Positions 18,366 to 37,774 of a stretch of 64,000 nucleotides of DNA are shown here, in pieces. The position numbers were made by a program, and so were the translations under genes. The stretch spans positions 153 through 64,152 of the forward strand of contig JAPPLI010000149.1 in NCBI GenBank assembly GCA_028819495.1, in the 5' to 3' direction. A model generated the notes under the pieces. That model did no database searches. It was given only the letters and a program-made list of their open reading frames with translations, and was not told the origin of the DNA. Origin of the DNA: Gammaproteobacteria bacterium (GTDB taxonomy: Bacteria; Pseudomonadota; Gammaproteobacteria; Eutrophobiales; Eutrophobiaceae). Each line of letters begins with the position of its first letter. Positions within the stretch are counted from its first letter, which is position 1.

Positions 18366-18385
18366 GTTTTTGGGACATTTCGAAA

Positions 18386-19756: not shown

Positions 19757-19789
19757 TACGAGACTTGTCATGAAACAGGAGCGAATGAA

Positions 19790-21668: not shown

Positions 21669-22583
21669 TCAACGTCGCGGAGAACTTGCAATACCGGCGA
21701 GTAGAAGTGAATTGATGCGTCGTTCTGCATGGTCGGAACGCGAATTAAACGTAACCGGAACACTGGCGCCGAGTAATAATCCACCTGACTTTGCCCTGCC
21801 ATGAAATTTGATGGCTTTACCGACCGCATTCGCGGCTTCCAGATCGTGGAATACAATAAGATCAGGATCACCGGCAACGGTTGAAGCACCCAGTTTTTTA
21901 TTCTGTGCCGCGTCTTTGCTGATACAGGCGTCATACCCAAACGGCCCATCAACAAGAAAACCATCCAGTTCCTGCATCTCACAAGCAGTTTTCAGCTTTA
22001 CCGCGTCAAGTGTGGCAGGCAAGGCCTCGCTGGGCTTTTCCGAGGCCGCAACAAGTCCGACTTTCACCGGCTGGATTCCCAGCGCAAAATAAAGCGGGCG
22101 CGTATTCTCTATGAATGCCTTCTTATCTTCAAAACCGGGATTGGGCACGATTGCGTTATCCGTAATTCCCAGTAATTTATGATAAGAATCCAATTCGAAA
22201 ACCGTAATATTGGACAGCACCTGGGACCTTCTTATCCCGGATCTTTTATCAAGTATGCTTTTTAAGAAAACCGCTGACTCTATATTTCCCTTCATTAAAA
22301 TTTCTGCCTCACCTCCTTTAGCTGCCGCAACAGCCACATCCGCACAAGCTCGTGCGGTGTCTGCGTCACGGATATCGAAAAGGTTTCCATCGGCATTAAT
22401 GTTTTTGAGGCGTTTACGGATCTCCTGTATGGGGCCGGAAACTATGGCATGACTGATAATTCCTGTCTGCAATAATGTTTCGACACTTGACAGCACCGCT
22501 TCGTCAGCGCCACCAGCAATGGAAACTGCCGATACATTGAATTGTTGTTCAGATAAATCCTTGAAACTTCTTACAGGGTTCAT
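21669..22583 (-). CDS. ptb: phosphate acyltransferase (phosphotransbutyrylase/phosphotransacetylase family)
   Basis: 304 aa with PTA_PTB-like sequence. Its start overlaps the butyrate kinase stop by 4 nt. Confidence 0.8.
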   Translation of the reverse strand: MNPVRSFKDLSEQQFNVSAVSIAGGADEAVLSSVETLLQTGIISHAIVSGPIQEIRKRLKNINADGNLFDIRDADTARACADVAVAAAKGGEAEILMKGNIESAVFLKSILDKRSGIRRSQVLSNITVFELDSYHKLLGITDNAIVPNPGFEDKKAFIENTRPLYFALGIQPVKVGLVAASEKPSEALPATLDAVKLKTACEMQELDGFLVDGPFGYDACISKDAAQNKKLGASTVAGDPDLIVFHDLEAANAVGKAIKFHGRAKSGGLLLGASVPVTFNSRSDHAERRINSLLLAGIASSPRR

Positions 22584-23728: not shown

Positions 23729-24448
23729 TCAGAATTCTTTAGTGATGTTTAAGACGAAGCCCTGGCACAATTCTTTTCCCCCACACTCACTATCAGCGTC
23801 ATTCCAGGAAATATCAAATCCAAAACCTGCAAAATACCTGGAAATACCAAGAGCATAATGTGAGTAGGCAAGGTTGATATCATCCACGTCGAGGTATCCG
23901 TATGATATATAGCCACTGAGTTCTGCGGGTAGCGATATTGTCAGGCCGGAAGTAACATAAATACTGGTTCCTCCATCGCCAAAATAATCAGGTGAAATCG
24001 CTACACCGCCATTCAACACCGGGGCGAGGTCGCCGCTGAATTCATAGCTGATGCCGGCTATAAACTCATAATAATTATACTGGCCTGTTCCATCATCTTC
24101 GTTTTGACCTGGATAACCATAGCGCTTGACGCTGATATCGTACCCCAGTCCGTTATCAAGCTCATTTGCATACCCGGCATAGATATGCCACTCAACCTTC
24201 GCCGGATCAGAGGCATCCGAATTAAAATCTATGGAAGATACCCAGGAACCCAGATAAAACCCTGATGTGTGCCCGATGTCAAGACCGCCGGAAACCGCCC
24301 ATTCCTCATTGGAAAAGGTCGTTCCATAATACTTGTAGTCATTTGTCAAGCCAATATTGGCACTTAAGCTGAAACCTTCCTGCGCATAAATTGATCCGGG
24401 AACTATAAAAAGCAGATTTGCCAGGAATAATGTTTTTAAAAATTTCAT
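23729..24448 (-). CDS. TorF-family (Gcw_chp) outer-membrane beta-barrel porin
   Basis: It has a signal peptide MKFLKTLFLANLLFIVPGSIYA, alternating beta-strand sequence (LTNDYKYYGTTFSNE...) and a C-terminal F. I moved the start to the ATG at 24446-24448. Confidence 0.7.
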   Translation of the reverse strand: MKFLKTLFLANLLFIVPGSIYAQEGFSLSANIGLTNDYKYYGTTFSNEEWAVSGGLDIGHTSGFYLGSWVSSIDFNSDASDPAKVEWHIYAGYANELDNGLGYDISVKRYGYPGQNEDDGTGQYNYYEFIAGISYEFSGDLAPVLNGGVAISPDYFGDGGTSIYVTSGLTISLPAELSGYISYGYLDVDDINLAYSHYALGISRYFAGFGFDISWNDADSECGGKELCQGFVLNITKEF

Positions 24449-24461
24449 TTTATACAAGTCT

Positions 24462-25223
24462 TCATGCAAATTGACCGGACAGTAATCCGCCTGCGGCTCG
24501 AACTTCGGCCGGTAACTTCAACGCACGCAGTATCTCGAACACTGTGGCCGCTGCCGTAGAAAAGACCGGCACATCGCAGGTTCGCTGCACAATATCCAGT
24601 GCGGCGAGAGAAGGCATCTGCACACAAACGGATAGCACCACGGCATCTGCATTTTGCGTCGAAAGTTTCTTGACGATATCCACCAGGGCCAGGGGATCGC
24701 GGGCGCCCACCTCAAGATTATCCGGGATTTCAAGTGATATTGCGTCGAGTACTTCAATACCTTCGCCTTCTATATAGGTGATCACCAGGTCCGTGAGACT
24801 TTTCATGTAAGGCGCTATGATGGCTATCTTCTTCGCTCCGAGCGCTTTTGACGCTTCTATCAGGGCGCCGGCGCTTGTAATTATCGGCAACTCAACACCA
24901 TCTGCATTACACACTGCGCGCAGCGAGCGCTCCGTCTCGCGATGGTAGCTCGTACCCTGACACATAATGGCCACCAGACACGCCGAAGCGATCACATCCA
25001 CGCGTGCATCGATCAGTTCACTTGCGCAACGGGCCATGTGTGCGTTCATGGCAGTCAACTCATCCTTGCTGACTGTTTTCATCGGCGCGCGACTCGAATG
25101 GAAAGTAAAGCCCACCCCGTCAGGCACGAAGGCGCGCCGTAACATCAACGGCACTTCAGTTTCCATCGTTGTATTTGAACTTGGGACGATCTGGCCGATG
25201 CGGTATGTCTTCGTTGCGCTCAT
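24462..25223 (-). CDS. maiA: maleate cis-trans isomerase (Asp/Glu racemase superfamily; NicE/PicG-like)
   Basis: 253 aa. The N-terminal YRIGQIVPSSNTTMETEVP is characteristic of maleate isomerases, and two conserved Cys regions are present (SACLVAIMCQG, LSVCVQMPS). Confidence 0.85.
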   Translation of the reverse strand: MSATKTYRIGQIVPSSNTTMETEVPLMLRRAFVPDGVGFTFHSSRAPMKTVSKDELTAMNAHMARCASELIDARVDVIASACLVAIMCQGTSYHRETERSLRAVCNADGVELPIITSAGALIEASKALGAKKIAIIAPYMKSLTDLVITYIEGEGIEVLDAISLEIPDNLEVGARDPLALVDIVKKLSTQNADAVVLSVCVQMPSLAALDIVQRTCDVPVFSTAAATVFEILRALKLPAEVRAAGGLLSGQFA

Positions 25224-25273
25224 TGCTCAATATGCCGGCAGGTCATGTATTTCTCGCTGGCCGGGGACAAATT

Positions 25274-26071
25274 TTAAATCTGTCCCCTTTTCTGTACATC
25301 GTTAAGGAACGACAGAACTGCTTCATTAAAAACTGCAGGTCTTTCGGCGTAGCCCAGATGTCCGACACCCGTGATTTCAACAAGCCTTGCCCCCGGTATG
25401 AGGCGGGCGATCTCCTCGCCTCCCTCTTTGGGCAGCACCAGGTCGTGTTCTCCGGTGATAACCAGCGTAGGAATATTGATGCCGCCGAGATCCGCACCCA
25501 CATCAAAATCGCGTAGTCCTTCAGTCATTACCTGGGTATAGATACACTTATCATTACGCACAAGCAACCCGGCAACCCATGTCCGCAGTTCCCGGCTTGC
25601 GTTGGCGGAACAGGCCTGTTCGACCACGAGCTCGGCATACTCCTCAAGCGGCAAATTGCGGAGCGCCTCTACCCGTCGTTCCAGAACGTCGGATGGGATG
25701 CTCATGCGCGGCGCCGTATGGCATAGAAGCAGGCTGCGGCACAGGTTGGGGTGGGCAAGCGCAAGCGCTTGCCCAATAAAACCACCCATGGAGGTGCCGA
25801 GTATATGGCAGCGACCGAGATCCAGTCGCTCGATCAACACGGCGATATCTTCTGCGAGGATATCGATAGCATAGTCACCGGGACCATCCGGGTGACTGGA
25901 CTGACCAAACCCGCGCAGGTCGACTGCCACCGTATGAAAACGTTGGGAGAAGACCGGTATCTGGTTTATCCACAGCGCGCTGCTCATGCCAAGACCGTGG
26001 ATCAGTATTAACGGTTCTCCCTCACCGGACTGCTGCACGAACAGTTTCACCTCGCCTGTATCGACGATCAT
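25274..26071 (-). CDS. alpha/beta-fold hydrolase (candidate N-formylmaleamate deformylase, NicD/PicE-like)
   Basis: 265 aa. It has an HGLG oxyanion motif and a GTSMGG nucleophile elbow, and sits between the NicX-like gene and the maleate isomerase gene. Confidence 0.7.
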   Translation of the reverse strand: MIVDTGEVKLFVQQSGEGEPLILIHGLGMSSALWINQIPVFSQRFHTVAVDLRGFGQSSHPDGPGDYAIDILAEDIAVLIERLDLGRCHILGTSMGGFIGQALALAHPNLCRSLLLCHTAPRMSIPSDVLERRVEALRNLPLEEYAELVVEQACSANASRELRTWVAGLLVRNDKCIYTQVMTEGLRDFDVGADLGGINIPTLVITGEHDLVLPKEGGEEIARLIPGARLVEITGVGHLGYAERPAVFNEAVLSFLNDVQKRGQI

Positions 26072-26099
26072 GTTCGTTTAACACAATGCGTGAAAAGAG

Positions 26100-27128
26100 T
26101 CACACGTGCGACACACGCATGTCTACGGGTACGACCTTGCCCTCATCCACAATCAGTTCGTCGTCGAGCATCAGGGTACAATTCTGCATGGGCAGATCGA
26201 GGTGGCAGGGCGTATCGTTACCGCCCCCGAACTCCGTATCCGGCCCCATGGAGAACAGCACGTTGCCGTAACAGGCGCGCCCGTCCATGCCTATTCCCGG
26301 CAGGTCAACGGCCCACTTGCAGGCGGCGTTCAGCCCCCAGCCGATATGCGAGATGGCATAGGCACGCGGGTCCTGGTATTCATCGATAAACTCCTTCAGC
26401 AGGCCCGCATCCGGGCCACCGTTGATTTCGATGACAGCACCATCCCGAATTACAAACTCGATCGGTGACTTGACGAATCGCTTGAGTGGAAAAATGATGT
26501 CGTTTGTATCCATGACCACGCGACCATTGACACCTTTATCCGCGGCCACGGTAGCCAGAAACCCCCCTGGCCAATGATCCCAGCGCCCGGGAGTGCAGGT
26601 ATAACCGTATTCGGTAAGTACCGTTTTGCCGTTAAGGTTATAAGTCACATCGGCGCCCGCCGCGTTGGTAAAACGCAGGGTTTTGGCTCCACTGAGCCGG
26701 CGTTCGCCCGCTTCCACCCGTTTGCGCAATTGCGGTGTCGGAAACAGCCGTTCAAGGATTTCCCGGGGCTCCACTACCAGCAGCACACGCGTGCCTGCCT
26801 CCTGCATGGCTATCTGCTCACGGGAAAACAGCAGCAGCATGTGGTCAACCACCATATCCGCATCACAGCACTGCTGCAGCACCGCGGGGTGCTCGCTGAG
26901 CGGATTTTTGCCGACGTTCGCGATACGCTCACTGGCGTCTACGGCCTGTTCGACCCGCAGGTTGGCGTCTATGACGTGAGCGCCGAGCTCGGAGGCTGCG
27001 CTGAGGGAGGATTCGGCGTAGTCGCGTAACAGGTCTCCCTCGGACAGCACGGCGATAGTCTGCCCCGGTCCGACCTCACACAGTCTGAGTTCATCGAGAA
27101 AAATATCTTTCATTGTCTTGTCCATCAT
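26100..27128 (-). CDS. 2,5-dihydroxypyridine 5,6-dioxygenase-like protein (NicX/PicD family, aminopeptidase-T-like fold)
   Basis: 342 aa. The blocks TEYGYTCTPGRWDHWPGGFL, ISHIGWGLN and TPCHLDLPMQNC match my recollection of Pseudomonas putida NicX. This needs confirmation by alignment. Confidence 0.7.
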   Translation of the reverse strand: MMDKTMKDIFLDELRLCEVGPGQTIAVLSEGDLLRDYAESSLSAASELGAHVIDANLRVEQAVDASERIANVGKNPLSEHPAVLQQCCDADMVVDHMLLLFSREQIAMQEAGTRVLLVVEPREILERLFPTPQLRKRVEAGERRLSGAKTLRFTNAAGADVTYNLNGKTVLTEYGYTCTPGRWDHWPGGFLATVAADKGVNGRVVMDTNDIIFPLKRFVKSPIEFVIRDGAVIEINGGPDAGLLKEFIDEYQDPRAYAISHIGWGLNAACKWAVDLPGIGMDGRACYGNVLFSMGPDTEFGGGNDTPCHLDLPMQNCTLMLDDELIVDEGKVVPVDMRVSHV

Positions 27129-27140
27129 GCTAATCCCCGT

Positions 27141-28409
27141 TTAAGCCTGTGCCGGACCGAAGGACTTCGAATAACCGCCGTCGGTGGCCTCAGGATATTT
27201 CAGACTGGTCTCGGCCAGGAATTCGGAGCAATCGTCAAGGCGTTTCCGGCGCGCGTCTTCATCCTCGTCGAGCAGTTGATCGAGGTAGTAGTTGATCAGG
27301 TGATGAATGGCGCGCTCCAGTTTGACGGTCGGCCCCGGCCGAAAACCGCGCGAACTGATGCCTGTCTGCAAAGACTCCAGCATTGCCAGGTCTTCAGTCG
27401 CGACGAGCTTGATGAAATCCGCGTAGATCTGGTTCTTCTCTGCGAAACCGGGCTCACCGAAAAATGCTTCCGGAAGTTGTGTATAGATAGTTACATGGGT
27501 GCGGTTGACATCGATCGGCGTAGCGACCCAGGGCTGGATAAGATCATGCCGGCCGAATATGTTCATGGTCGGGCGGACCCAGGTTGTGCATGCGAATTTA
27601 TCGGTCACCTTGCCCTCCAGCCAGGGCATCGGGCCAAACAGCGTAACGCCGTTCGGGGCCATGGTATAGCTCTCGTACACGGCATTGTAGCCGTTGCCGT
27701 TGAGATTGAAGCGGAAGTCATTGATTGGAAAGTGGCCGCCGAATGACGTACCGTGAATGACGCCGACGTGGTACATGTCCATCAGGTTTTCAGGTACAAA
27801 TTTCCAGTTGCACGGGACTTCAAATTCGAATTTGTCCGATGTCCTGGTGTCCTCGGGTTGCAGGAAACCTGCGAATTCACGCACGCCATCATCGTCCAGG
27901 CAGTCATTAAGCGGGCGGCACTCCGGGTCGAAATTAACGAATACATATCCGCCCCAGGTGTCGAGGTTCACAGACGGCAGGCTACAGGACTTGAAGTCAT
28001 AGTCGGTAACTTCCGTACTGTGCGGCGCCGCTTTCAGCTTTCCGTCGAGTGTATATGACCACGCGTGATAGCGGCAGGTGAAAAGCCTGGCATTACCCCG
28101 GCCGACCGCCACCTCTACGCCGCGATGCGCGCAGAGATTCCTGAAGGCGCGCAGTACACCATCTCTATCGCGACAGACTACCAGGGGTTCGCCGGCAATA
28201 CGCGTGGCATGGTAGTCGCCGGGTTTCCCGAACTCCTCAACGCGCCCCACGCACAACCATTCGCGCATGAAAATGGTATCGATCTCACGCTGGAAGATTT
28301 CCTCAGAGCTGTAAAAAAAACCGGGCAGGTGCCCTGATTTGAGAAGATGAGAGCGGGTTTTTTCGATTAGTTTTCGAGTTTCTGAATCAAGTTCCGGAAT
28401 AAGCGACAT
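27141..28409 (-). CDS. Rieske [2Fe-2S] non-haem-iron oxygenase, alpha-type subunit
   Basis: It has the Rieske motif CAHRG-x-CRYHAW and the mononuclear iron motif DMYHVGVIH. No beta subunit or reductase gene lies next to it. Confidence 0.9.
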   Translation of the reverse strand: MSLIPELDSETRKLIEKTRSHLLKSGHLPGFFYSSEEIFQREIDTIFMREWLCVGRVEEFGKPGDYHATRIAGEPLVVCRDRDGVLRAFRNLCAHRGVEVAVGRGNARLFTCRYHAWSYTLDGKLKAAPHSTEVTDYDFKSCSLPSVNLDTWGGYVFVNFDPECRPLNDCLDDDGVREFAGFLQPEDTRTSDKFEFEVPCNWKFVPENLMDMYHVGVIHGTSFGGHFPINDFRFNLNGNGYNAVYESYTMAPNGVTLFGPMPWLEGKVTDKFACTTWVRPTMNIFGRHDLIQPWVATPIDVNRTHVTIYTQLPEAFFGEPGFAEKNQIYADFIKLVATEDLAMLESLQTGISSRGFRPGPTVKLERAIHHLINYYLDQLLDEDEDARRKRLDDCSEFLAETSLKYPEATDGGYSKSFGPAQA

Positions 28410-28461
28410 CGATCTGTTCCCCCTGTTTGAGTAATGTTCTGTCAGGTTGATATATCACCGT

Positions 28462-29283
28462 TTACGCTGCCGCGAGCAGTGTAAACGTCTGGGTTGTGAC
28501 CGGAACGCGTTCCAGTTCCTCACGGACGTCGTCACCCTGCGAAACCGGCGAGAGATAGCGCCCGGTGAACGACAGTTCGATGCTTTCAGCATCATCGAAG
28601 GGGTACGGGTCCAGGGCATAGACTCCGGTCTCAACGGGTTTGATGGCGACTTCCGTATCCTCTGAAGCGTTCAACGGCACGTGAGAGAAGCTCGCTTCTT
28701 CACGCGCGCCTTCATGGACGCAGTTGAAATACAGCGCCAGCGTATCGAAGAACTGCAGCTGCTTGTAATTCTGGAACAGCCGACTCTCCTGGGTTAAAGA
28801 AGCCGTCTCGGGGTCACTTTCCAGTTGTGTCCTGAGACGTTTTTGCCGTTCAATTTCGCCCTCCAGCATCGCGTCGGCCAGCGCCCGGTTGTCGTCGGCA
28901 AGGCTGTCGAGCAGTACTTTGTCCGACATCCCGTAGCGTCCGTTATACAGGCCCCAACTGTGCATGCTGGACATGAGGCCGCAGTAGGGATGATGCTCAC
29001 TGTTGGCATCCGGGGAGGCGCTGCTGGTCTCGACTATGTTCGCGAATGGTGTCTTCACCAGGTTGTACGGCAAGCCGGTTGCCGGGTCGCGCAATGCCTG
29101 TGCGTCCAGGTCGCGCCAGCCAATGTCGTGATGTTCGATGACGTGCAGCATCAGCGCACGCGGTTCGACCGGTTCAAACTGTTCGTTGCCGAAATGCTCG
29201 GCGAAGCGCGCGCAGAGCGCGGTATGTTGGTCCATGGTGATGACGAAGTGTTCCGCACCTTCAGCTGCACTTTGTACGATCAT
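28462..29283 (-). CDS. hypothetical protein (HHD-x-GW motif; possibly DUF3891-like)
   Basis: 273 aa, in-operon, with good coding character. It carries a conserved-looking IEHHDIGWRD motif. The family assignment is from memory only. Confidence 0.5.
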   Translation of the reverse strand: MIVQSAAEGAEHFVITMDQHTALCARFAEHFGNEQFEPVEPRALMLHVIEHHDIGWRDLDAQALRDPATGLPYNLVKTPFANIVETSSASPDANSEHHPYCGLMSSMHSWGLYNGRYGMSDKVLLDSLADDNRALADAMLEGEIERQKRLRTQLESDPETASLTQESRLFQNYKQLQFFDTLALYFNCVHEGAREEASFSHVPLNASEDTEVAIKPVETGVYALDPYPFDDAESIELSFTGRYLSPVSQGDDVREELERVPVTTQTFTLLAAA

Positions 29284-29321
29284 GGTATGTCTCCTGTAGA
29301 GCTGCGTTGTTTGGAGGCAGG

Positions 29322-29346
29322 GGGGACGGACTTGAAGTCCGTCCCC
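29322..29346 (-). terminator. 25-nt palindrome GGGGACGGACTT-G-AAGTCCGTCCCC downstream of the SDR gene
   Basis: Read directly from the sequence. It lies in the 108-nt gap between the SDR stop (29392) and the next start (29283) and has no clear T-tract. Confidence 0.4.
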
Positions 29347-29391
29347 GGGATTTCTGCCGTATAGATTGTATTGTTCGGGCGCGCGTGTGCA

Positions 29392-30153
29392 TTATTGGGC
29401 AACGAAACCTCCGTCAACCGAGAGAACGGACCCAACGGTGAAACTCGCCTGGGGTGAGCACAGCCATACCACTGCGTGCGCGATTTCTTCCGCTTCCCCC
29501 ATCCTGCCGATCGGCTCGCGTGAGATGATTGCATCGATGATTTCGGGCCGGCCTTCCAGGATTTTATCAACCAGCGGCGTTTGCACCGGACCGGGGCAGA
29601 CCGCGTTGACGCGTATGCCGCTTTGCGCATATTCCAGCGCTGCGGTTTTAGTTAATCCGATAACGCCATGCTTGCTCGCGGAATAAGCGGGCATGCCGTT
29701 CGAACCCACGAGCCCGAAATTTGATGCGTTATTGACGATGGCGCCGCTGCCCTGTTTCAGCATCTGCGCGATCTCGTATTTCATGCACAACCATACGCCC
29801 TTGAGGTTTATCCCGGTGATTCGATCCCAGTTCTCTTCGCTGCAATCTGCCGTTTGACTGAGTTCACCCTGGATGCCGGCATTATTGAACGCGCAGTCGA
29901 GGCTGCCATAAGCAGCGACCGCGGCGCCAACCATGTTTTCAACCGCTGCGGACTGCGACACGTCCGCGACCACGAACGTCGCTGTTCCCGACGCGGCTTC
30001 GATCAGTTCAAGGGTTTCCGCGCCACCCGTCTCGTCGACATCGGCGACGACGACATTGGCTCTGGCAGCCGCGAATGCAATAGCGGCGGCGCGGCCGATC
30101 CCCGACCCGCCGCCGGTGACAAGTGCTGTTCTGCCTTCGAGCATGTTGCCCAT
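29392..30153 (-). CDS. short-chain dehydrogenase/reductase (SDR)
   Basis: It has the TGGGSGIG, NNAG and YSASK motifs. Confidence 0.9.
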   Translation of the reverse strand: MGNMLEGRTALVTGGGSGIGRAAAIAFAAARANVVVADVDETGGAETLELIEAASGTATFVVADVSQSAAVENMVGAAVAAYGSLDCAFNNAGIQGELSQTADCSEENWDRITGINLKGVWLCMKYEIAQMLKQGSGAIVNNASNFGLVGSNGMPAYSASKHGVIGLTKTAALEYAQSGIRVNAVCPGPVQTPLVDKILEGRPEIIDAIISREPIGRMGEAEEIAHAVVWLCSPQASFTVGSVLSVDGGFVAQ

Positions 30154-30160
30154 GGTCCTG

Positions 30161-30478
30161 TTACTGGTACGTGTCGAATCTCTCCGCCTCGACCATGTTC
30201 AGCCTGGCGGGGTTCTTGTACATCTCGACGAGGTTGCAGACTTCCACGAGCGATAAAGCCATGTTGCACAGACGCCGGGCATCCTCGGGCATCTCGGCGT
30301 AATGGTACTGGTTGAGGTACACGATAATTTCTTCCAGCCGCCCCCACATCGCATCATAAAAATCGTGAATCTCGTCCAGCGAAGAGCCCACGCGTTTTGC
30401 AATACGCTCACGTTCGGTCGGCAGCGACCACTCCAGGTATTTCTTGAGATCGAGGAACGGCTCAGGTAACACGGCCAT
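30161..30478 (-). CDS. small hypothetical protein (105 aa, predicted helical)
   Basis: I moved the start to MAVLPEPF (ATG 30476-30478), 2 nt after the Rieske gene stop (TGA-CC-ATG). I recognise no motif in it. Confidence 0.5.
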   Translation of the reverse strand: MAVLPEPFLDLKKYLEWSLPTERERIAKRVGSSLDEIHDFYDAMWGRLEEIIVYLNQYHYAEMPEDARRLCNMALSLVEVCNLVEMYKNPARLNMVEAERFDTYQ

Positions 30479-30480
30479 GG

Positions 30481-31665
30481 TCAAACCTGCTCCATTTCGC
30501 GTTCGAGGACCCTGTGAAAATGCCGGATCGGCAGCTCCTCGTCCTGCATGATCATGTGCGGGCGGGCGCGGGAGGCGAGCCCTTTCTGGATCTGCTCGTG
30601 CTGGAACGCATCTTCCATCAAGGTATCCCGTAAACGGAGGATGGTCCATTCCTGGTTCAGCCGTTGCGCGACATTTTCCGCTTCCGGGAAGTGATAGCGC
30701 ATCTCCCAGATACAGCGGTCGACGGCGAGTGGCCAGAAATTATAGGTCATGAAAAAATCGCCCGACACGCCTTCAAAAAGAAGGATGGCGGAATTCGGAA
30801 ACAGCAGGTACCAGTCAAAATTGCTGATGCGCTGGCTCATGCGCACATCGTTGACCGCGCTGTCCAGACTGTTGAGCAGGGCATCGGTCGGCAGTGGCTG
30901 GTGGTTCGGGTTGTACTCACACGACCAGACGCTGTGGTAGTTATACAGGTTCACGTTCGAGAAACGGCAGAACCTGTCGTCCTTGAGCACGAACGCATCG
31001 CCGATGGTAAAGCGGTGCTGGACGGGGAGGTGATACAGCTCGTTCTGCGCATCGATCCCGGTCTTCCAGTTGGCGGCTTCCTCGACTTTGTAAGTCTTGA
31101 GCAACTGCATCTTCTCAAAGCCGGCGCCGTCGAGCTGGGTCCCCAGGCCGCCGAGGAACTCGCGCAAGGTCTCGGCGGGTTCCGGCGAGAGATTGATAAA
31201 TATGAAACCTTCCCAGATGTCACAGTTGATTGGGGTCAGACCATACTGGTCCTTGTCGAGATCGAAAAAGTTTTCCTCATCTGGCACGAACGCCAGTTTT
31301 CCTTCAGGCGAGAACGCCCAGCCGTGAAAGTTGCAGCCGAACCGGCCCGGACACCTGCCGCGTTTCTCTTTCATGATGAGAGTATTACCCCGGTGCGGGC
31401 ACACGTTGTGAAACGCGCGTACTTCGTCATCATCGCCACGGACGATGAGGATGGATACGCTGCAAACGGCAAGATCCCGCACGAAAAAATCGCCGCCTTC
31501 AGGGATTTCACTGACCCGGCCCATCATCAGCCAGTGACGCCTGAAAATAAGCTCCCGTTCCCGTTCAAAATATTCCGGGTTTATGCAGGGCTCCGTGGAT
31601 ACCAGTCCGGTATCTGCATCGGGGTATTTCTCGGACCACTGTTTGTCTATCAATCGGGTTTGCAT
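30481..31665 (-). CDS. Rieske [2Fe-2S] non-haem-iron oxygenase, alpha-type subunit
   Basis: It has the Rieske motif CPHRG-x-CNFHGW and the iron motif ELYHLPVQH. It is 394 aa, and there is again no beta or reductase partner. Confidence 0.9.
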   Translation of the reverse strand: MQTRLIDKQWSEKYPDADTGLVSTEPCINPEYFERERELIFRRHWLMMGRVSEIPEGGDFFVRDLAVCSVSILIVRGDDDEVRAFHNVCPHRGNTLIMKEKRGRCPGRFGCNFHGWAFSPEGKLAFVPDEENFFDLDKDQYGLTPINCDIWEGFIFINLSPEPAETLREFLGGLGTQLDGAGFEKMQLLKTYKVEEAANWKTGIDAQNELYHLPVQHRFTIGDAFVLKDDRFCRFSNVNLYNYHSVWSCEYNPNHQPLPTDALLNSLDSAVNDVRMSQRISNFDWYLLFPNSAILLFEGVSGDFFMTYNFWPLAVDRCIWEMRYHFPEAENVAQRLNQEWTILRLRDTLMEDAFQHEQIQKGLASRARPHMIMQDEELPIRHFHRVLEREMEQV

Positions 31666-31714
31666 GATTTCACCTCCAAATCAGATAACCTCTACTGCCA
31701 ATGCGCCAACTCGG

Positions 31715-34096
31715 TCAACTCGCCTGCGGCTGGTTCACATTGTTAATCAAATCCATCACCTGCTGCGGACCTATCGGGGTCACCAGCGGCACCAGGGCGC
31801 CGTCATGGTCGGACAAGGCATCCGCCAGCGCATTCGATAACGCGATATGGACCGATAACATCGCAGCCTCGCCGGCGCCTTTGAAACCGCCTTCGGTAAT
31901 CGGTGACGGAGTCACGACATGTTCGCATTGGATGTCGGGCAGGTTTACTGCGTTCGGGATCAGAAAATCCATGAACGACGCGTTTTTAAGCTGGCCGTTC
32001 TCATCGTAATCCAGCGATTCCATCAGGCCCATGCCGAGTCCCTGCGAGGCGCCGCCGCGCATCTGCCCGTCGACGACTTTCGGGTTGATCATGTTGCCGC
32101 AATCCTCAACTGCAACGATACGTTTGATATCGATGATCCCGGTTTGCGGGTCCAGTTCAATCGTTACCGCATGCGAGCCGTTTGCATACGCGGCCGGCGG
32201 GTCGTAGTGCCGCGTGGACGCCAGAACAGGTTCCACTTCGTCCTCATCCGGACGGCTGTAGCGGTCGTAATAGGTGATAAAAGCGATTTCAGCAACCGTT
32301 TTGCTGATAGCCCGTGAACCCTTGACGAAAATCTCTCCGTCTTCAATGGTCAGGTCAGCTTCATTCGCTTCCATCACGTGCGCCGCAATTTTCAACAATT
32401 TTTCGCGCACGTCAGTCGCTGCCCGAATAACCGAACCGCCGCCGATTACTGCGCTGCGGCTCGCAAACGTACCCATGCCGTAGGACCCCGTTGCAGTGTC
32501 GCCATCGAGTACTTTGACATCTTCAAAAGGCACCCCCAGAACATCCGCTGCGACCTGGGCCAGAGTCGTTCTCTGCCCCTGCCCGTGGCTGAACTGTCCG
32601 CTCTTTACCGTAACCTTCCCGCTCGGATCCATTTCAACCGTTGTCGAATCGTGCAACGTTGCGGGAAAACCGCTTTCCCGCGCCGAATGACTGCCCCAGT
32701 TCGTTTGCTCGACGAAAAATGACACGCCAATCCCCCTCAGTTTACCTTCCTCCGTAAGCCGGGGCTGCTTCTTTTGCTGTGCGTAATCCGATGCGTCCAG
32801 ACACTTATCCAGCACTTTATGGTAGTCGCCGCTGTCATAGGTTTGATTCGTCACCGTGGTATAGGGAAATTCATCGGCGCGGATGAAGTTCTTGCGGTAG
32901 AGATCGGTGATATCCAGGTTGAGCAGGCGGGCCGCCTTCGTCATCACCATTTCGCGCGCATAGCAACCTGCAGACCAGCCAACTCCGCGATAAGCGCCGG
33001 TGTTCATTTTATTCGTCAGGCACACCACCGTTTCAAACTCGATATTCCGCACCGTGAACGCGCCGGGAGCGCCGGTATTTGCCGGAACCGATTCAATCAG
33101 ACCCGACCAGGGATTTTGCGAATAAGCGCCGGAATCGCAGATATTCCTGATTTTCATGCCGGCCATGGCGCCGTCGCTCTTGAACGCGAGGGACATGTAA
33201 ATGGTGCATTGCTTCGCGTGGGACGCCCCGAGCAGGTGTTCGCGCCGGTCTTCGGTCCACTTGACCGGCTGTTTAAATTCCTTTGCCAGCCACGGCAGGA
33301 TAAACTCTTCCGGGAAGAAATGCGCCTTCTGCCCGAAACCGCCACCTACGGTTGGTGCAACTACCCGGATAATCTGCTCCGGGATACCGAGATGCAGCGC
33401 AATCGACGTGCGCAGGAAATAAGGCATCTGGGTCGACGACCACACCGACAGGGTATCGTCCCAACCCCAGGTCGCCACCACGCCGCGCGTCTCCATCGGC
33501 GCAGCCGAGGTTCGACCGGTCGCGATCTTTTCACTGACAACGAGATCCGCCTCAGCAAAGGCTTTGTCCACGTCTCCGTTACTGAACGAGTCCTCATAAT
33601 AGATGTTGCTGCCGAGGTCTTCGTGCAGGAGCTCGGCATCCGGCTGCATCGCATCTTCAACGTTGTTATATGCCGGCAGGGGTTCGTATTCCACCCCGAT
33701 CAATTCGACGATATCTTCAGCAATGTAGCGGCTTGGCGCTACCACGGCCGCAATAATCTCACCCACGAAGCGCACTTTGCCGGTTGCCAGAAACGGCATG
33801 AACACCGGCTTCATGGTGCCGCGCGTGCCTGGTATGAAGGTCTTGAAACCAGCGCCTAAATCATCGTTCGTGATAATGCGCACACAGTCAGGATGCTGCC
33901 GCGCCTTATCAAGATTGAGGCTTTTGATGCGTGCGTGCCCATGCGCGCTCCTGAGGAAGGCCACTTCCAGCATCCCCGGTATCTTGATGTCATCGACATA
34001 CTTCGCCTGCCCCATCAGGATCTGCGGGTCCTCGGTGCGCTTGCGTGATTCGCCGATGTACTTTGTCGCTCCACCCAATGCGATCGGTTCTTTCAT
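31715..34096 (-). CDS. molybdopterin-binding large subunit of a xanthine-dehydrogenase-family hydroxylase
   Basis: 793 aa. It has the GGGFGQK motif and an AYRGVG motif. The form-I CO-dehydrogenase signature (AYxCSFR) is absent. Confidence 0.9.
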   Translation of the reverse strand: MKEPIALGGATKYIGESRKRTEDPQILMGQAKYVDDIKIPGMLEVAFLRSAHGHARIKSLNLDKARQHPDCVRIITNDDLGAGFKTFIPGTRGTMKPVFMPFLATGKVRFVGEIIAAVVAPSRYIAEDIVELIGVEYEPLPAYNNVEDAMQPDAELLHEDLGSNIYYEDSFSNGDVDKAFAEADLVVSEKIATGRTSAAPMETRGVVATWGWDDTLSVWSSTQMPYFLRTSIALHLGIPEQIIRVVAPTVGGGFGQKAHFFPEEFILPWLAKEFKQPVKWTEDRREHLLGASHAKQCTIYMSLAFKSDGAMAGMKIRNICDSGAYSQNPWSGLIESVPANTGAPGAFTVRNIEFETVVCLTNKMNTGAYRGVGWSAGCYAREMVMTKAARLLNLDITDLYRKNFIRADEFPYTTVTNQTYDSGDYHKVLDKCLDASDYAQQKKQPRLTEEGKLRGIGVSFFVEQTNWGSHSARESGFPATLHDSTTVEMDPSGKVTVKSGQFSHGQGQRTTLAQVAADVLGVPFEDVKVLDGDTATGSYGMGTFASRSAVIGGGSVIRAATDVREKLLKIAAHVMEANEADLTIEDGEIFVKGSRAISKTVAEIAFITYYDRYSRPDEDEVEPVLASTRHYDPPAAYANGSHAVTIELDPQTGIIDIKRIVAVEDCGNMINPKVVDGQMRGGASQGLGMGLMESLDYDENGQLKNASFMDFLIPNAVNLPDIQCEHVVTPSPITEGGFKGAGEAAMLSVHIALSNALADALSDHDGALVPLVTPIGPQQVMDLINNVNQPQAS

Positions 34097-34111
34097 GGTC
34101 AGTATCCTCGA

Positions 34112-34600
34112 TTAAGCCTCGCCCGATGACAGGGCCGCCACGGCCGCTGCCTCGACCGAGTCGACAATGTCATGATAGCCGGTACAACGGCACAGGTTAC
34201 CCGACAGCGCTTCACGGATTTCCGCGCGGGTCGGGGTGGGGTTTTCCTCGAGAAACGCCTTCATGCTCATCAGGATCCCGGGTGTGCAGAACCCGCATTG
34301 CAGACCCTGGTTTTCCCAGAAGGCATTTTGCAAAGCGTTCAGTTTGCCGTTCTCCGCCAGCGATTCCACTGTCTCGATTGCCTTGCCTTCCGCCTGCAAC
34401 GCGAATGTCAGGCAGGAACGCACCGGCAATCCGTCCACCAGGATCGTGCATGACCCGCAGATACCATGTTCACAGGCGACGTGTGTGCCGCTGAGATCAA
34501 GTTCATGCCGGATAAAATCGGATAACAGCATGCGCGGTTCTATTTCCCTGTCGTAGGAGACCCCGTTTACATTGAGGGTGATCTTTTTTTTCTCAACCAT
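34112..34600 (-). CDS. [2Fe-2S]-binding small subunit of the molybdenum hydroxylase
   Basis: It has CEHGICGSCT and QCGFCTPG cluster motifs. It is 162 aa. Confidence 0.92.
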   Translation of the reverse strand: MVEKKKITLNVNGVSYDREIEPRMLLSDFIRHELDLSGTHVACEHGICGSCTILVDGLPVRSCLTFALQAEGKAIETVESLAENGKLNALQNAFWENQGLQCGFCTPGILMSMKAFLEENPTPTRAEIREALSGNLCRCTGYHDIVDSVEAAAVAALSSGEA

Positions 34601-34622
34601 ATTCTGCTCCTGTGTCCCGGTT

Positions 34623-35495
34623 CTAAACGGTTACTGCCCGGCTGAGTGCATCTTCAAGCGCCCGGGCAGTCAACGCTTGCGCGGCATTGCGGCGATATTC
34701 CGCGGTGACGTGTACGTCGGTTTCCGGATCGATAATCCCGCGCACACTGGCTGCCGCCTCCTGCACCAGTTCGGGCGAGCACTGATTTCCGAGTAACGCA
34801 TCCTCTGCTTCCCTGGCCCGTACCGGGGTTGCGTCAACTCCGAACAATGAAACCCTGGCATAACTACACTTGCCATCGCTATCCAGGTCGATCACGGCCG
34901 CGCTGCCTGCCAGTGAGAAATCACCCGCGCGTTGGGTGATTTCATGGAATCCCCACCCGCTGGTCTGCGGCGGCGCCTTGAACAGGATGGATGACAACAC
35001 TTCATCAGTCTTCAGAGACGTTGTCATGTAGGTGATAAAAAAGTCCTCCGCCGGGACCACAGTTTTATTCGATGCGCTTTCTGTTTCAAATTCCGCATCC
35101 AGTAATAACGACATGGCGGGCAGTTCGGAAGCCGGGTCTGCGTGGGCGATGCTGCCGCCTACCGTGCCCTTGTTACGCACCTGGAAATGGGAAATGTGCT
35201 CGATTGCATGAACCAGTACCGGTATTCGTTGGCGCAGGCCTGCATGCTTTTCCGTAAATCGCTGGGTGGTGGTAGCTTTCACCCTCACGCCGTTCTGCTC
35301 ATCAACAACAAGATTGGGCTCCTCCACGTTGCTGACATCTATCAGAACACTGGGTGTGGCCAGCCTGAAATTCATCGCTGCAATGAGACTTTGTCCGCCG
35401 GCCAGGATCTTTGCATCATCTCCATGTTCCTTTAACAAGGCGCACGCGTGTTGTAAATTCTCAGCCCTGTGGTAATCAAACTTCGCTGGTTTCAT
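34623..35495 (-). CDS. FAD-binding medium subunit of the molybdenum hydroxylase
   Basis: It has the AGGQSL motif. It is 290 aa and CoxM/XdhB-like. Confidence 0.88.
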   Translation of the reverse strand: MKPAKFDYHRAENLQHACALLKEHGDDAKILAGGQSLIAAMNFRLATPSVLIDVSNVEEPNLVVDEQNGVRVKATTTQRFTEKHAGLRQRIPVLVHAIEHISHFQVRNKGTVGGSIAHADPASELPAMSLLLDAEFETESASNKTVVPAEDFFITYMTTSLKTDEVLSSILFKAPPQTSGWGFHEITQRAGDFSLAGSAAVIDLDSDGKCSYARVSLFGVDATPVRAREAEDALLGNQCSPELVQEAAASVRGIIDPETDVHVTAEYRRNAAQALTARALEDALSRAVTV

Positions 35496-35513
35496 ATCTC
35501 ACACCTTTAACAG

Positions 35514-35972
35514 TCAGTTTGGCGTTGGTACAAAATGATTCTCCATCTCATTAATCAGGTCCTTGAAAAACTCCTTGGTCATGTGCTTTGAAATGCCTGT
35601 TATAACCCTCCCCCCGATGCTGGCGATCAGTCCGCCTACGTTAGCATCACAGGACCAGCGCATCAAAGTACCGGCAGAGACTGCTTCCAGAAGGCAATTC
35701 ACTTCCATATTCACAAAACCCGGTTTGCCGGCGCCCTCGGCATTAAGAAGGTAACGGTGAGGAAACTCAACATCGGTAACCCGGATTTTTCCTTCATAGT
35801 CGCCTTTTATTGCCGCTACCCCCAGCGACAGTGTTATCTTATACCCGCCGTCTTCATCGGGCATCAAAGACTTGCAGCCAGGGATGACCTTGACGAGGAT
35901 ATCCACATCGTGTAACGCACTCCATACCTGTACAGTGTCGTACGGGAACTCGGCACGACCTTCAAGTTTCAA
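35514..35972 (-). CDS. CoxG / SRPBCC-family protein
   Basis: 152 aa with CoxG-like sequence, positioned at the head of the Mo-hydroxylase genes. Confidence 0.75.
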   Translation of the reverse strand: MKLEGRAEFPYDTVQVWSALHDVDILVKVIPGCKSLMPDEDGGYKITLSLGVAAIKGDYEGKIRVTDVEFPHRYLLNAEGAGKPGFVNMEVNCLLEAVSAGTLMRWSCDANVGGLIASIGGRVITGISKHMTKEFFKDLINEMENHFVPTPN

Positions 35973-36002: not shown

Positions 36003-37703
36003 CTAAAATGTAAACTTCAACTCAGTGAACAGCGAATCATTTCTCTGGAACTCGCCGAAAAATGAATCCAGGTTGCCGGAAATAACGTTGAGGCCGACAC
36101 GGGCAGTCAACTGAGCGTTGAAATTGTAGCCGACCAGGGCGCGCACCCACGACGCCCGTTGACGGTGGCCGAATTCATGCAGGCCGAACAGTTCCACGTG
36201 CAGTGTCTTGCCCGGCAGGAAGTCATTGAACATGAACAGGGTTGCGACATGTCGCGTGCGGTTACGGAGGCCGTTGAAACCGTTGGACGCGCCGCCGATG
36301 ATATACCCTCTGTCGCCGCAAAGCGGTTGTGCGGCGCAGGCCACAGAATCCAGGTGCGTAAACTGGCCGGGTGTCGGGTCGCGCAGGATTTCGTCACGCC
36401 AGATCTGGGCCGATACAAACCAGGGTGTCTTGAACAGGGTTCTGGGACCGATATAGAGATATTGGTCCAGACCTATCAGGGCGGTAACACTGTCGGCTGT
36501 GACTGTCTCAAGGTCCGGCTCATAAAAGCGTTGTCCGAAATTGTAGACGATCTCGCCGCGCATCACCGTGCCCGCGAGCTGGCCGGGCAGGAACTCCAGG
36601 GCCTTGTCAAAGGAGGCGCCAATCAAGTCGTAACGGTGGCGGGTAAAATCGATGCCTCCGCCAATTGCCCGTGGTCCGGCTATATCAAAAGCAAAACCTG
36701 CGTTTATGCGATTGCCAAGAATATAAAACGGGATATCCTCAAACAGGTGGCCGTAATGGAATGAATAGGTCATATCCGAGAACGGCCCGAGATCACCACC
36801 TGTACGCGCCCGCCAGCGCACAAAGACTTCAGATTTGTCGATGGCATCACCCTTATCCCAGGCATCGCCGTCGAAGAAATGCGGTTCACCGAACAGGTTG
36901 GCCGATACATTGATAACCTGGTCCGCAAAGTCCACAACTGCCAGGGTGTAGGGGTGTTGCCCCTCTCCTTCCGCCCAGAAACCGGGGAAACGGGCTGGCG
37001 TGTAGTCCCAGTTCCAGACCACCTGCAACTCCTTGGAGATACCCGGAAGCCACTCTACCCTGGACAGGTCATACTTTATATTCAACATGTCCTGCGGGAT
37101 CATGAAGCGCTCCTGCTCGAAGGTGAGCGGATTACGGAAGTTGCGCGGTGTTATGACATCCAGTACGGTCACGCCGTCGGAACGGCCCCAGGTCACTATC
37201 TGCCGGCCGGCCCGGATATGCAGCGGGTGATAATTGATATCCAGGTAGGCTTCACGGACCAGGGGGTCCCAACTGTCGTGCAGGCCGCTCTCCAGGTTAC
37301 TTTCCCAGTGTGTGGCAATGGAATTATCCTTGTCTTCGAGGTCATACATAGCGTCATAGTAGGCGCGTAACTTCAACACCGGTGTTATATTTTTAATACC
37401 CTTGTATACCATCTCGAGGCTCAACTCGGTACGCAGTGCATTAAGCGTATCGTACTCGGACCGGTTGCTCGGCGTGCCCAGTGCGCCCGGCCCAAGGAAA
37501 ACACCTGGCGCTACTGCGAGGGAAAACTCTCTGCCCTGGTCAGGCTTGCCGCCAATGCGGAAGTCGCCCAGTACAAAGACCTCTCCACTGACTTCAAAGT
37601 CTCCAAATTCATACCGGGCAGAACTTTCCCCCGACCACCCGGACAGCGCTACGGTAATTACAGATAAAAAGACTGTGAGATAACGTCGATTTGAATTAAT
37701 CAT
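36003..37703 (-). CDS. DUF1302-like outer-membrane beta-barrel protein
   Basis: It has a signal peptide (MINSNRRYLTVFLSVITVALSG), Tyr/Gly/Asp-rich beta-barrel character and a terminal KFTF. A GGAGGA Shine-Dalgarno sequence precedes the ATG at 37703. The family call comes from context and memory. Confidence 0.65.
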   Translation of the reverse strand: MINSNRRYLTVFLSVITVALSGWSGESSARYEFGDFEVSGEVFVLGDFRIGGKPDQGREFSLAVAPGVFLGPGALGTPSNRSEYDTLNALRTELSLEMVYKGIKNITPVLKLRAYYDAMYDLEDKDNSIATHWESNLESGLHDSWDPLVREAYLDINYHPLHIRAGRQIVTWGRSDGVTVLDVITPRNFRNPLTFEQERFMIPQDMLNIKYDLSRVEWLPGISKELQVVWNWDYTPARFPGFWAEGEGQHPYTLAVVDFADQVINVSANLFGEPHFFDGDAWDKGDAIDKSEVFVRWRARTGGDLGPFSDMTYSFHYGHLFEDIPFYILGNRINAGFAFDIAGPRAIGGGIDFTRHRYDLIGASFDKALEFLPGQLAGTVMRGEIVYNFGQRFYEPDLETVTADSVTALIGLDQYLYIGPRTLFKTPWFVSAQIWRDEILRDPTPGQFTHLDSVACAAQPLCGDRGYIIGGASNGFNGLRNRTRHVATLFMFNDFLPGKTLHVELFGLHEFGHRQRASWVRALVGYNFNAQLTARVGLNVISGNLDSFFGEFQRNDSLFTELKFTF

Positions 37704-37774
37704 GCCTGTTTCCTCCAATATAAGATTTAAGGCACCTCTAAAAGTTAGAGGTTCCATTTACAACATCCTCATAA

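Follow-up and report, generated by a model that had tools for sequence, protein, structure and literature searches.

The DNA analysed here, referred to below as the window, is a stretch of 64 000 nucleotides from an uncultured marine gammaproteobacterium of the family Eutrophobiaceae (assembly GCA_028819495.1, contig JAPPLI010000149.1, positions 153 to 64 152). Its minus strand carries an array of closely spaced genes encoding a molybdenum hydroxylase, two Rieske oxygenase alpha subunits, a 2,5-dihydroxypyridine dioxygenase of the NicX type, an alpha/beta-fold hydrolase and a maleate isomerase, and we think it probable that this array is a catabolic cluster for a pyridine-type N-heterocycle, ending in the maleamate pathway. 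Genes were taken from a listing of open reading frames (ORFs) and from Pfam and NCBIfam scans, in which nearly all ORFs of at least 100 amino acids across the 64 kb were scanned.

Results

Organization of the putative catabolic genes

An earlier note on this DNA, made from the letters alone, had listed the catabolic genes between 35972 and 24462, and all of them are present on the minus strand at the positions it gave. The tightly spaced, co-directional array nevertheless extends beyond these limits, and in the ORF listing comprises 19 minus-strand genes from 41596 to 21669 with intergenic gaps of at most 108 nt. In the direction of transcription, the catabolic part opens with a CoxG-like SRPBCC protein (35514–35972; Pfam COXG, E = 1.3e-23), followed by three subunits of a molybdenum hydroxylase: the FAD-binding, medium subunit (34623–35495; FAD_binding_5 and CO_deh_flav_C), the small subunit with two [2Fe-2S] clusters (34112–34600; Fer2_2 and Fer2) and the molybdopterin-binding, large subunit of the Qor/CoxL type (31715–34096; Ald_Xan_dh_C, MoCoBD_1 and MoCoBD_2). 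Next come the Rieske oxygenase alpha subunit that we call Rieske2 (30481–31665; Rieske and Ring_hydroxyl_A), a 105-residue protein with no Pfam family (30161–30478), which starts 2 nt past the Rieske2 stop codon, a short-chain dehydrogenase/reductase (SDR; 29392–30153; adh_short_C2, 5.8e-65, with the generic SDR model PRK06172 in NCBIfam) and a DUF3891 protein (28462–29283; PF13030, 2.5e-33). The other alpha subunit, Rieske1 (27141–28409; Rieske, Ring_hydroxyl_A and VanA_C), is followed by the NicX-type dioxygenase (26100–27128), the alpha/beta-fold hydrolase (25274–26071; Abhydrolase_1, 7.6e-36) and the maleate cis-trans isomerase (24462–25223). The two proteins of unknown type that had earlier been noted beside the SDR are thus the DUF3891 protein and the 105-residue protein. 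An ORF of 116 codons at 29280–29630 was rejected as spurious; it overlaps the SDR gene and is not called by gene callers. The proteins match exactly those of a MAG recorded at NCBI (MDE0157077-085), all of them generically named, as are the homologues of at least 50% identity.

These genes form three modules, namely the molybdenum hydroxylase; Rieske2 with the small protein, the SDR and the DUF3891 protein; and Rieske1 with NicX, then the hydrolase and the isomerase. Within the window, the modules are co-directional and have gaps of 15–108 nt. For comparison we used 80 loci, one genome per species, that encode members of the same NicX subfamily at 55–92% identity; individual loci, including some outside this set, are given L numbers below, and two of the arrangements found among them are called groups A and B.

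The NicX-type dioxygenase

The product of the gene at 26100–27128 aligned with Pseudomonas putida NicX (PDB 7cn3_A) over residues 8–334 of 342 with an E value of 2e-70, and the called gene, for which the gene callers' start gives 341 residues rather than the 342 of the ORF, has the NicX family PF26233 on record. The blocks TEYGY..PGRWDHWPGGFL, ISHIGWGL and TPCHLDLP, on which the earlier note had rested its NicX call, are all present, and the full-length match bears that call out. The Fe(II) ligands of NicX are His265, Ser302, His318 and Asp320 (PMC7910607). They map here to H261, S293, H309 and D311, and do not vary among the aligned NicX-type proteins of related loci; the earlier note had made its claim depend on the metal ligands of NicX and PicD, and all four are conserved. 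The equivalents of Leu104, Glu177, His189 and Arg293 (L100, E173, H185 and R284) are likewise kept, as is that of Glu308. In place of His105 there is Phe101, and this Phe is invariant in the aligned subfamily members from related loci; the NicX variant H105F is reported to retain activity (PMC7910607). The closest annotated relatives among those searched, NicX-type proteins encoded on plasmids of cultured bacteria, do not exceed 50% identity to the window protein. We regard the predicted identity of this protein as a true NicX-type 2,5-dihydroxypyridine dioxygenase as confirmed at the level of sequence, and its residues place it in a distinct NicX subfamily with Phe at the position of His105.

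A second NicX paralogue is found in several Binatia loci (L067, L069–L071 and L074–L080), approximately 3–6 kb downstream of the first, with a glyoxalase-fold protein and a luciferase-like monooxygenase on its flanks. This paralogue retains the iron ligands and a His at position 105, and it has Ser/Asn instead of Glu177/His189, which suggests a different ring substrate.

A hairpin with a 9-bp stem and a T-rich tract (26101–26121, minus strand) lies over the NicX stop codon and could act as a partial terminator before the hydrolase gene. Promoter and terminator scans of the region gave results at chance level, and an Rfam scan of the window found no RNA family.

The maleate isomerase and the hydrolase

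The 253-residue product of 24462–25223 matched the P. putida S16 maleate isomerase structure 4fq7 (E = 2.5e-74) and 2xec (2.2e-54), both over the full length, against just 2e-9 for arylmalonate decarboxylase, so that the earlier call of a maleate isomerase stands. Its Cys82 and Cys199 are spaced 117 residues apart, close to the 118 residues between the catalytic cysteines of known enzymes (Cys76 and Cys194 in the Nocardia enzyme), and may be the corresponding pair. Judged by these matches, the predicted maleate isomerase is the best-supported single assignment in the array besides NicX.

The hydrolase had been described as NicD/PicE-like. Its fold and its position beside NicX agree with that description, but orthology does not follow: its best matches are to PcaD-like (3-oxoadipate enol-lactonase) models, and it is only 26% and 28% identical to the NicX-adjacent hydrolases in the standard clusters of two Variovorax plasmids, with which it was compared. 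A hydrolase gene lies within the locus (approximately 10 kb either side of NicX) in 22 of the 80 loci. Because it stands directly after NicX in group A and in most group B loci, we propose the hydrolase as a candidate N-formylmaleamate deformylase. With the NicX and maleate isomerase calls both holding, it is likely that a lower pathway of the maleamate type is encoded.

The molybdenum hydroxylase

The CoxG-like protein and the three-subunit hydroxylase that the earlier note had placed at 35972–31715 were all found. Separate molybdenum (hammerhead plus MoCoBD_1/2), FAD and 2x[2Fe-2S] subunits represent the organization of the xanthine-dehydrogenase/carbon monoxide dehydrogenase family. The best solved relative of the large subunit is QorL of quinoline 2-oxidoreductase (1t3q_B; E = 7e-187, 42% identity over approximately 770 residues), which is much closer than the carbon monoxide dehydrogenases, and the alignment of the two contains a conserved G-x-G-E motif, whose Glu we take to be the catalytic Glu743 of Qor. 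Identity to the nic-type molybdenum subunit of a Variovorax cluster (see below) is 28%, and neither figure fixes the substrate of the hydroxylase. A large subunit is encoded in 28 of the 80 loci, and in group B it is accompanied by genes for the maturation proteins CoxD and CoxE; the CoxG-like protein is 75–82% identical across the group A loci.

The Rieske oxygenases

Both alpha subunits contain the CxH..CxxH motif and the 2-His-1-carboxylate site that are common to all Rieske oxygenases. The motifs of Rieske1 read CAHRG..CRYHAW and DMYHVGVIH, with a bridging Asp (LMDMYH), and those of Rieske2 read CPHRG..CNFHGW and NELYHLPVQH, with a bridging Glu (QNELYH). CntA is the best PDB match of both, that of Rieske2 (9e-30) covering the N-terminal half only, and GbcA is the best NCBIfam model of both, again over the N-terminal half only and with 125–128 bits against a cut-off of 670. 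The signature of group V consists of an aromatic residue at CntA Y203 (group Va), a Cys-x-x-Cys near the iron site and the bridging Glu, E205 (PMC7948474, PMC10952381). At the positions of CntA Y203, E205, C206 and C209, Rieske1 has L, D, M and V, whereas Rieske2 keeps just the bridging Glu, with Q at the position of Y203 and without the Cys pair. The group V enzymes (CntA, GbcA/BmoA and Stc2) are homotrimeric and alpha-only and share the Ring_hydroxyl_A domain with both proteins here, but they differ in the signature residues and in an adjacent partner reductase of the CntB/GbcB type, which was not seen in the array. The analogy to GbcA, CntA and Stc2 that had been drawn earlier therefore reduces to overall similarity.

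The two oxygenases had also been described as alpha subunits standing alone. This was right as regards electron transfer, as no ferredoxin or ferredoxin-reductase domain was found among the window ORFs scanned and no gene for either in the annotated relatives L081, L084, L085 and L089, but not as regards Rieske2, which has a partner in the 105-residue protein. With no electron-transfer genes found in the cluster, the electrons must come from genes outside it or from the molybdenum hydroxylase. A Rieske1 homologue from a cultured Acidovorax (39% identity) adjoins a Rieske-type ferredoxin and an FAD reductase.

The small Rieske partner and DUF3891

The true start of the small protein is the ATG at 30478, on which the gene callers agree, giving 105 residues rather than the 162-residue ORF. 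A profile of the family retrieves 1106 representatives at 50% identity, and the E values of 606 of these are below 1e-10; there were no fusions to Rieske domains among the best 150 of the 1106, all of which are small, stand-alone proteins. A member is encoded in 28 of the 80 loci, always after a Rieske alpha gene, and in all five independent contexts sampled (L088, L089, L092, L093 and L094) the family lies directly downstream of such a gene. The AlphaFold2 model (predicted local distance difference test score, pLDDT, 84) is all-helical and gave no fold match in the PDB, and Pfam offered nothing credible at E values up to 10. The conserved residues include no cysteine cluster, and the protein is therefore not an electron carrier. 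The protein appears to be a partner specific to one class of Rieske oxygenases, and the family may be an undescribed type of subunit of these enzymes; no description of such a small Rieske partner was found in the literature searched.

In the DUF3891 protein, H20, H52-D53, H98, H108 and D180 are invariant in 35 homologues, a pattern that resembles the dimetal sites of HD domains, and the protein is possibly an HD-like metalloprotein. Its AlphaFold2 model (pLDDT 92.8) had no significant fold match in the PDB, nor was there a PDB sequence match or a second Pfam family at E values up to 10, and no paper mentioning DUF3891 was found in the literature searched.

Distribution of the modules in related loci

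The 80 loci span Gammaproteobacteria, Alphaproteobacteria and Binatia, and almost all come from metagenome-assembled genomes (MAGs), whose isolate labels point to sponges, corals and marine, freshwater and groundwater habitats. Marinibaculum pumilum, the only cultured carrier found, has just the NicX subfamily member. The arrangement in the window is not a product of chance, because the same gene order recurs, at approximately 90% protein identity, in eight other MAG loci, and parts of it recur in more distant lineages.

An orthologue of Rieske1 lies directly upstream of NicX in 44 of the 76 loci with enough flanking sequence, in both Gamma- and Alphaproteobacteria, and in Binatia the same place is taken by weaker Rieske1 relatives (40–43% identity). 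This adjacency is the strongest functional link in our data and suggests that Rieske1 makes the substrate of NicX. The block of Rieske2, small protein, SDR and DUF3891 is contiguous in group A and in the group B Gammaproteobacteria; Binatia retain Rieske2 and the small protein, and in L089 the Rieske2 module stands alone behind a LysR regulator. The presence of all three modules together, in three arrangements and in distant lineages, argues for a shared pathway, although the separate occurrence of the Rieske1–NicX and Rieske2 modules keeps alive the alternative, weighed below, that independent modules have been juxtaposed.

Missing upper-pathway enzymes and amidase

None of the ORFs scanned across the 64 kb had an FAD_binding_3 (NicC-type), Amidohydro_2 (PicC-type) or isochorismatase (NicF/PicF-type) domain, in agreement with what the earlier note had seen in the shorter region. 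An Amidohydro_2 gene does lie near the cluster in some relatives; that of the alphaproteobacterial loci was considered as a PicC-like decarboxylase and rejected, its best solved relative being the oxygenase PtmU3.

An AtzH-like gene of the NTF2 fold (PF11533, 1.6e-39) is present in most relatives (L001, L003–L006, L008–L012, L014–L017 and L085), between the DUF3891 and Rieske1 genes in group A and between Rieske2 and a TetR gene in group B (L085); at this site (28409–28462) the window and L002 hold just a 52-nt gap. As AtzH is an amidohydrolase of cyanuric acid breakdown, the AtzH-like protein could, by analogy, provide the missing amide-removing step in those relatives.

Five plus-strand genes at 17353–21632 converge on the end of the array and encode LamB/YcsF, a 91-residue biotin carrier (with an EVMKS motif), a biotin carboxylase, CT_C_D and CT_A_B, a set that resembles a biotin-dependent oxoprolinase or urea-carboxylase-like system. 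The same LamB/YcsF–biotin set adjoins the NicX loci in L002, L009, L072 and L073, and does so in part in L034; that it processes an amide or lactam is conceivable.

Flanking genes

Upstream of the catabolic genes, all on the minus strand, the array begins with a LolA-like/DUF1329 gene (40373–41596), followed by an RND/MMPL transporter of the HAE3 type (37775–40327) and a DUF1302 gene (36003–37757). A DUF1302 gene is also adjacent in L002, and in L047 there are MMPL and LolA-like genes in the vicinity of the cluster, but these genes are absent from most other relatives and their link to the catabolic genes is uncertain. At 292 nt upstream of the array lies a minus-strand gene for a LacI-family regulator (41889–42971; Pfam LacI and Peripla_BP_3), closest to the CytR, RbsR and PurR models (NCBIfam CytR 6e-74 and RbsR 6e-68, both below their cut-offs), and its position would allow it to act on the array. 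At the other end, the isomerase gene is followed on the same strand by a TorF/Gcw_chp porin (23729–24469), a butyrate kinase scoring above its NCBIfam cut-off (22580–23707) and a phosphotransbutyrylase-like protein (21669–22583), with which the array ends; butyrate kinase and phosphotransacylase genes also come after the isomerase in L001, L003–L005 and L009.

Further out, the window contains a nicotinamide phosphoribosyltransferase gene with genes for a HAD hydrolase and a SnoaL protein (45162–47752), and, at 54847–58274, a nucleoside hydrolase gene divergent from the gene for a binding protein of the CUT2 type of ATP-binding cassette (ABC) transporter. In the place of transporter genes, the latter is followed by a DUF4143/AAA_14 ATPase, and this arrangement suggests that an operon for ribose or nucleoside uptake has been rearranged. 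The A and B subunits of a hydantoinase/oxoprolinase (6288–10091, minus strand) and an aldehyde:ferredoxin oxidoreductase family protein (47781–49508, minus strand) have no apparent connection to the cluster.

Discussion

A proposed pathway

The best reading of the array is that of a new variant of the pic/nic-like route, with a molybdenum hydroxylase, a Rieske oxygenase and a maleamate pathway, for some pyridine derivative. We infer the following order of steps. The Qor/CoxL-type hydroxylase (the CoxG, FAD, FeS and molybdenum proteins) would place an oxo group, derived from water, next to the ring nitrogen, and Rieske1 with O2 would then add a second hydroxyl in the para position, giving 2,5-dihydroxypyridine or a close analogue. 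Rieske1 would in this way take the place of NicC in nicotinate degradation, or of PicB (plus PicC) in picolinate degradation. The NicX-type Fe(II) dioxygenase would open the ring between C5 and C6 to yield N-formylmaleamate, from which the adjacent alpha/beta hydrolase would remove the formyl group; the amide nitrogen would then be lost, a step with no amidase candidate in the window, and the maleate isomerase would form fumarate. Rieske2, the 105-residue partner, the SDR and the DUF3891 protein most likely act as an autonomous unit that alters or removes a methyl, alkyl or N-linked substituent before or after the ring hydroxylation. The presence of a maleate isomerase argues for a four-carbon cis-dicarboxylate product and hence for a pyridine ring, and possible substrates are nicotinate or nicotinamide (perhaps as ribosides), picolinate and N-methylated pyridine carboxylates. 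Literature searches, including those for DUF3891 and for the combinations of Rieske with dihydroxypyridine, of trigonelline, Rieske and maleamate, and of hydroxynicotinate with Rieske, found no paper on an identical gene set; the earlier note, which would have given up its claim had this gene set been found with a described pathway, is to that extent supported.

Several findings weigh against this pathway. Genes for a maleamate amidase, a decarboxylase, a ferredoxin and a reductase were not found among the ORFs scanned in the 64 kb, the molybdenum subunit is nearer to quinoline oxidoreductase than to the nic-type subunit (42% and 28% identity, respectively), and the hydrolase, at 26–28%, is not an orthologue of the NicX-adjacent hydrolases of standard clusters. 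The maleate isomerase is adjacent in just eight of the 80 loci, those of group A and L058. The exchange of His105 for Phe means that the NicX substrate could differ, even though the H105F variant is active, and the Rieske2 module is found alone and so may serve a different substrate. More generally, the enzymes of the cluster are known here from sequence, with no characterised close relative.

Alternative explanations

One version of the proposed pathway, which we consider possible but rather unlikely, is that the substrate enters as a riboside of the pyridine base, such as that of nicotinamide or nicotinate, or as another pyridine nucleoside, which a nucleoside hydrolase would cleave to release the base, the ribose being phosphorylated. 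CUT2-type ABC transporters (a Peripla_BP_4 binding protein, a fused double ATPase and a BPD_transp_2 permease) are neighbours of NicX or Rieske1 in L007, L020, L085 and approximately 15 alphaproteobacterial loci, with a PfkB ribokinase-like gene beside NicX in L007 and L020, and an IU_nuc_hydro nucleoside hydrolase beside the transporter in L085. The window itself holds orthologues of the L085 hydrolase (70–73% identity, depending on the direction of comparison) and binding protein (65%) at 54847–56968, as well as the nicotinamide phosphoribosyltransferase gene (45162–46610), and the array regulator is closest to CytR and RbsR. Together, the transporter, kinase, hydrolase and regulator weakly suggest delivery of the base in this form. 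However, the window hydrolase and binding protein are approximately 19 kb from the array and have no permease or ATPase gene of the transporter after them, the alphaproteobacterial loci are closely related and amount to few independent cases, LacI regulators and CUT2 transporters are very common, and no nicotinamidase gene is present in the window.

A more far-reaching form of the proposed pathway, to which we would give a similarly low probability, sees in the cluster a widespread way of breaking down the pyridine ring, as yet undescribed, in Binatia and in uncultured symbionts of marine hosts, and joins three ideas: that the Rieske enzymes replace the flavin monooxygenase, with the molybdenum hydroxylase as their two-electron donor; that the 105-residue family is an obligatory Rieske partner; and that DUF3891 carries out a new metal-dependent step, which could be the removal of the amide or of an N-substituent. 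We suggest the molybdenum hydroxylase as donor because no ferredoxin or reductase gene stands beside the Rieske genes in any annotated locus.

Somewhat less probable, in our view, is that independent modules lie side by side: Rieske1, NicX, the hydrolase and the isomerase would form one pathway, and the Rieske2 module, and perhaps the molybdenum hydroxylase, would act on unrelated compounds. The solitary Rieske2 module of L089 would be expected on this basis, as would the Rieske1–NicX pair that lacks both the Rieske2 module and the molybdenum enzyme in most alphaproteobacterial loci, the NicX gene on its own in L007 and L020, and the differing flanks of close relatives. It accounts poorly for the co-occurrence of the three modules in group A, in the group B Gammaproteobacteria and in Binatia, and for their shared direction and short gaps in the window.

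The earlier note had offered, as a speculation, an N-methylated pyridine carboxylate such as trigonelline or homarine, with one Rieske enzyme removing the N-methyl group in the manner of Stc2 or GbcA, the molybdenum enzyme hydroxylating C6 and the other Rieske enzyme introducing the second hydroxyl ahead of NicX. The idea is ecologically sensible, as several close relatives are apparently MAGs from sponges and corals by their isolate labels, and such hosts are rich in these betaines. The rank of CntA and GbcA as best solved relative and best model of both Rieske proteins is consistent with it, as are the group V-like bridging Glu of Rieske2 and a distant pair of Rieske2 and small protein that lies near a dimethylglycine-dehydrogenase-like gene. 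The signature residues, however, lend no support: Rieske1 has L/D/M/V at the four CntA positions, Rieske2 is without the aromatic residue and the Cys pair, and the GbcA match, confined to the N-terminal half, falls far below its cut-off. In addition, no betaine-type transporter (BCCT or OpuA), CntB/GbcB-type reductase or formaldehyde-handling gene was seen in the array. Homarine is degraded through an unrelated operon, homABCDER, which opens the ring without demethylation (PMC13236597), and the enzymes of that operon, considered as a possible identity for the array, are unrelated to those found here (PMC13236597). We regard this reading as distinctly unlikely.

We are equally doubtful of a hydrophobic bicyclic or alkylated N-heteroaromatic substrate, of the quinoline or alkylpyridine type, which the Qor-like enzyme would convert to the 2-oxo compound; Rieske2 and the SDR would then dihydroxylate and rearomatise the product or oxidise an alkyl group, before Rieske1, NicX and the isomerase act. 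The molybdenum subunit is far closer to quinoline 2-oxidoreductase (42% identity) than to other solved relatives, but that identity does not fix its substrate. A Rieske enzyme with an SDR is the classical pair for dihydrodiol or methyl oxidation, of which TsaM/TsaC is an example (PMC10579966), but among the window genes there was no extradiol dioxygenase to cleave a carbocyclic ring. The RND/HAE3, DUF1302 and DUF1329/LolA-like genes lie directly upstream on the same strand, and similar genes lie near the L047 cluster, yet the set is absent from most relatives. The glyoxalase/VOC protein that follows Rieske2 and the small protein in Binatia also speaks for this reading, whereas the alphaproteobacterial loci, which have Rieske1 and NicX only, with sugar-type ABC transporters, speak against it.

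The lumichrome/riboflavin pathway, raised by the ribokinase, luciferase-like and thiamine pyrophosphate genes of some relatives, was rejected, because it relies on a xanthine oxidase of one chain, a Rieske dioxygenase of four components and a catechol dioxygenase, and yields no maleate (PMC12746152).

Significance

The chief interest of the pyridine-degrading cluster that we propose lies in its distribution in uncultured lineages, in its two unannotated protein families and in the question of electron supply. Nicotinate, nicotinamide, picolinate, trigonelline and homarine are plentiful metabolites rich in nitrogen, and the bacterial routes described so far for their degradation are those of a small number of soil genera in culture. 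The present cluster and its relatives occur almost only in uncultured genomes, by their isolate labels those of sponge- and coral-associated, marine and freshwater Proteobacteria and of Binatia. If the proposal is correct, Rieske1 together with a Phe-type NicX would make a marker set for annotating pyridine-ring catabolism in these lineages, and functions would follow for DUF3891 and for the small Rieske partner family, with its more than 1,000 clusters at 50% identity. It would also raise the question of how Rieske oxygenases are reduced where there is no nearby reductase gene.

Comparison with known systems

At the level of single enzymes, no sequence-level difference was detected between the predicted maleate isomerase and Iso of the nicotine pathway of P. 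putida S16 (4fq5/4fq7). Quinoline 2-oxidoreductase of P. putida 86 (1t3q) has the same L/M/S subunit organization as the molybdenum hydroxylase of the array, but the quinoline pathway of that strain continues through OxoO/OxoR and the coumarin route and not through NicX.

Among whole clusters, the nic cluster of P. putida KT2440 is the second closest to the array, with the NicX iron ligands and key substrate residues in common, as well as the deformylase and maleate isomerase steps. Canonical nic clusters use NicC and NicF. A nic-like cluster on plasmid 3 of Variovorax sp. SRS16 encodes a CoxG-like SRPBCC protein and molybdenum, FAD and FeS subunits, followed by an FAD monooxygenase, an isochorismatase, a hydrolase and NicX, and so includes NicC-like and NicF-like enzymes, neither of which was found in the array. 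The two clusters also differ in sequence: the molybdenum subunits are 28% and the hydrolases 26–28% identical, and the position of NicX His105 is Phe in the subfamily of the array. A homologue of Rieske1 (37% identity), with another alpha/beta hydrolase after it, lies approximately 6 kb from the nic-like cluster on the same Variovorax plasmid (L090; 414917–416919 and 421654–429997). As a cultured organism, Variovorax SRS16 could be used for experimental comparison.

Closest of all to the array is the pic cluster of Alcaligenes faecalis JQ135, which converts picolinate to fumarate by means of the molybdenum hydroxylase PicA, the Rieske enzyme PicB, a decarboxylase and PicDEFG (bioRxiv 10.1101/530550). 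The two have a common logic of molybdenum hydroxylase, Rieske oxygenase, NicX-type dioxygenase (PicD), hydrolase (PicE) and isomerase (PicG). PicB, however, comprises alpha, beta, ferredoxin and reductase components, whereas the array has two alpha subunits of another lineage, one of them with an unrelated 105-residue partner, and no electron-transfer genes; the PicC decarboxylase and the PicF amidase were not found in the array, and the array adds the SDR and the DUF3891 protein. The earlier note had presented the array as a departure from known pathways, and in its missing genes it is one; the combination of a molybdenum hydroxylase, a Rieske oxygenase and a maleamate pathway is, on the other hand, the architecture of the pic cluster itself.

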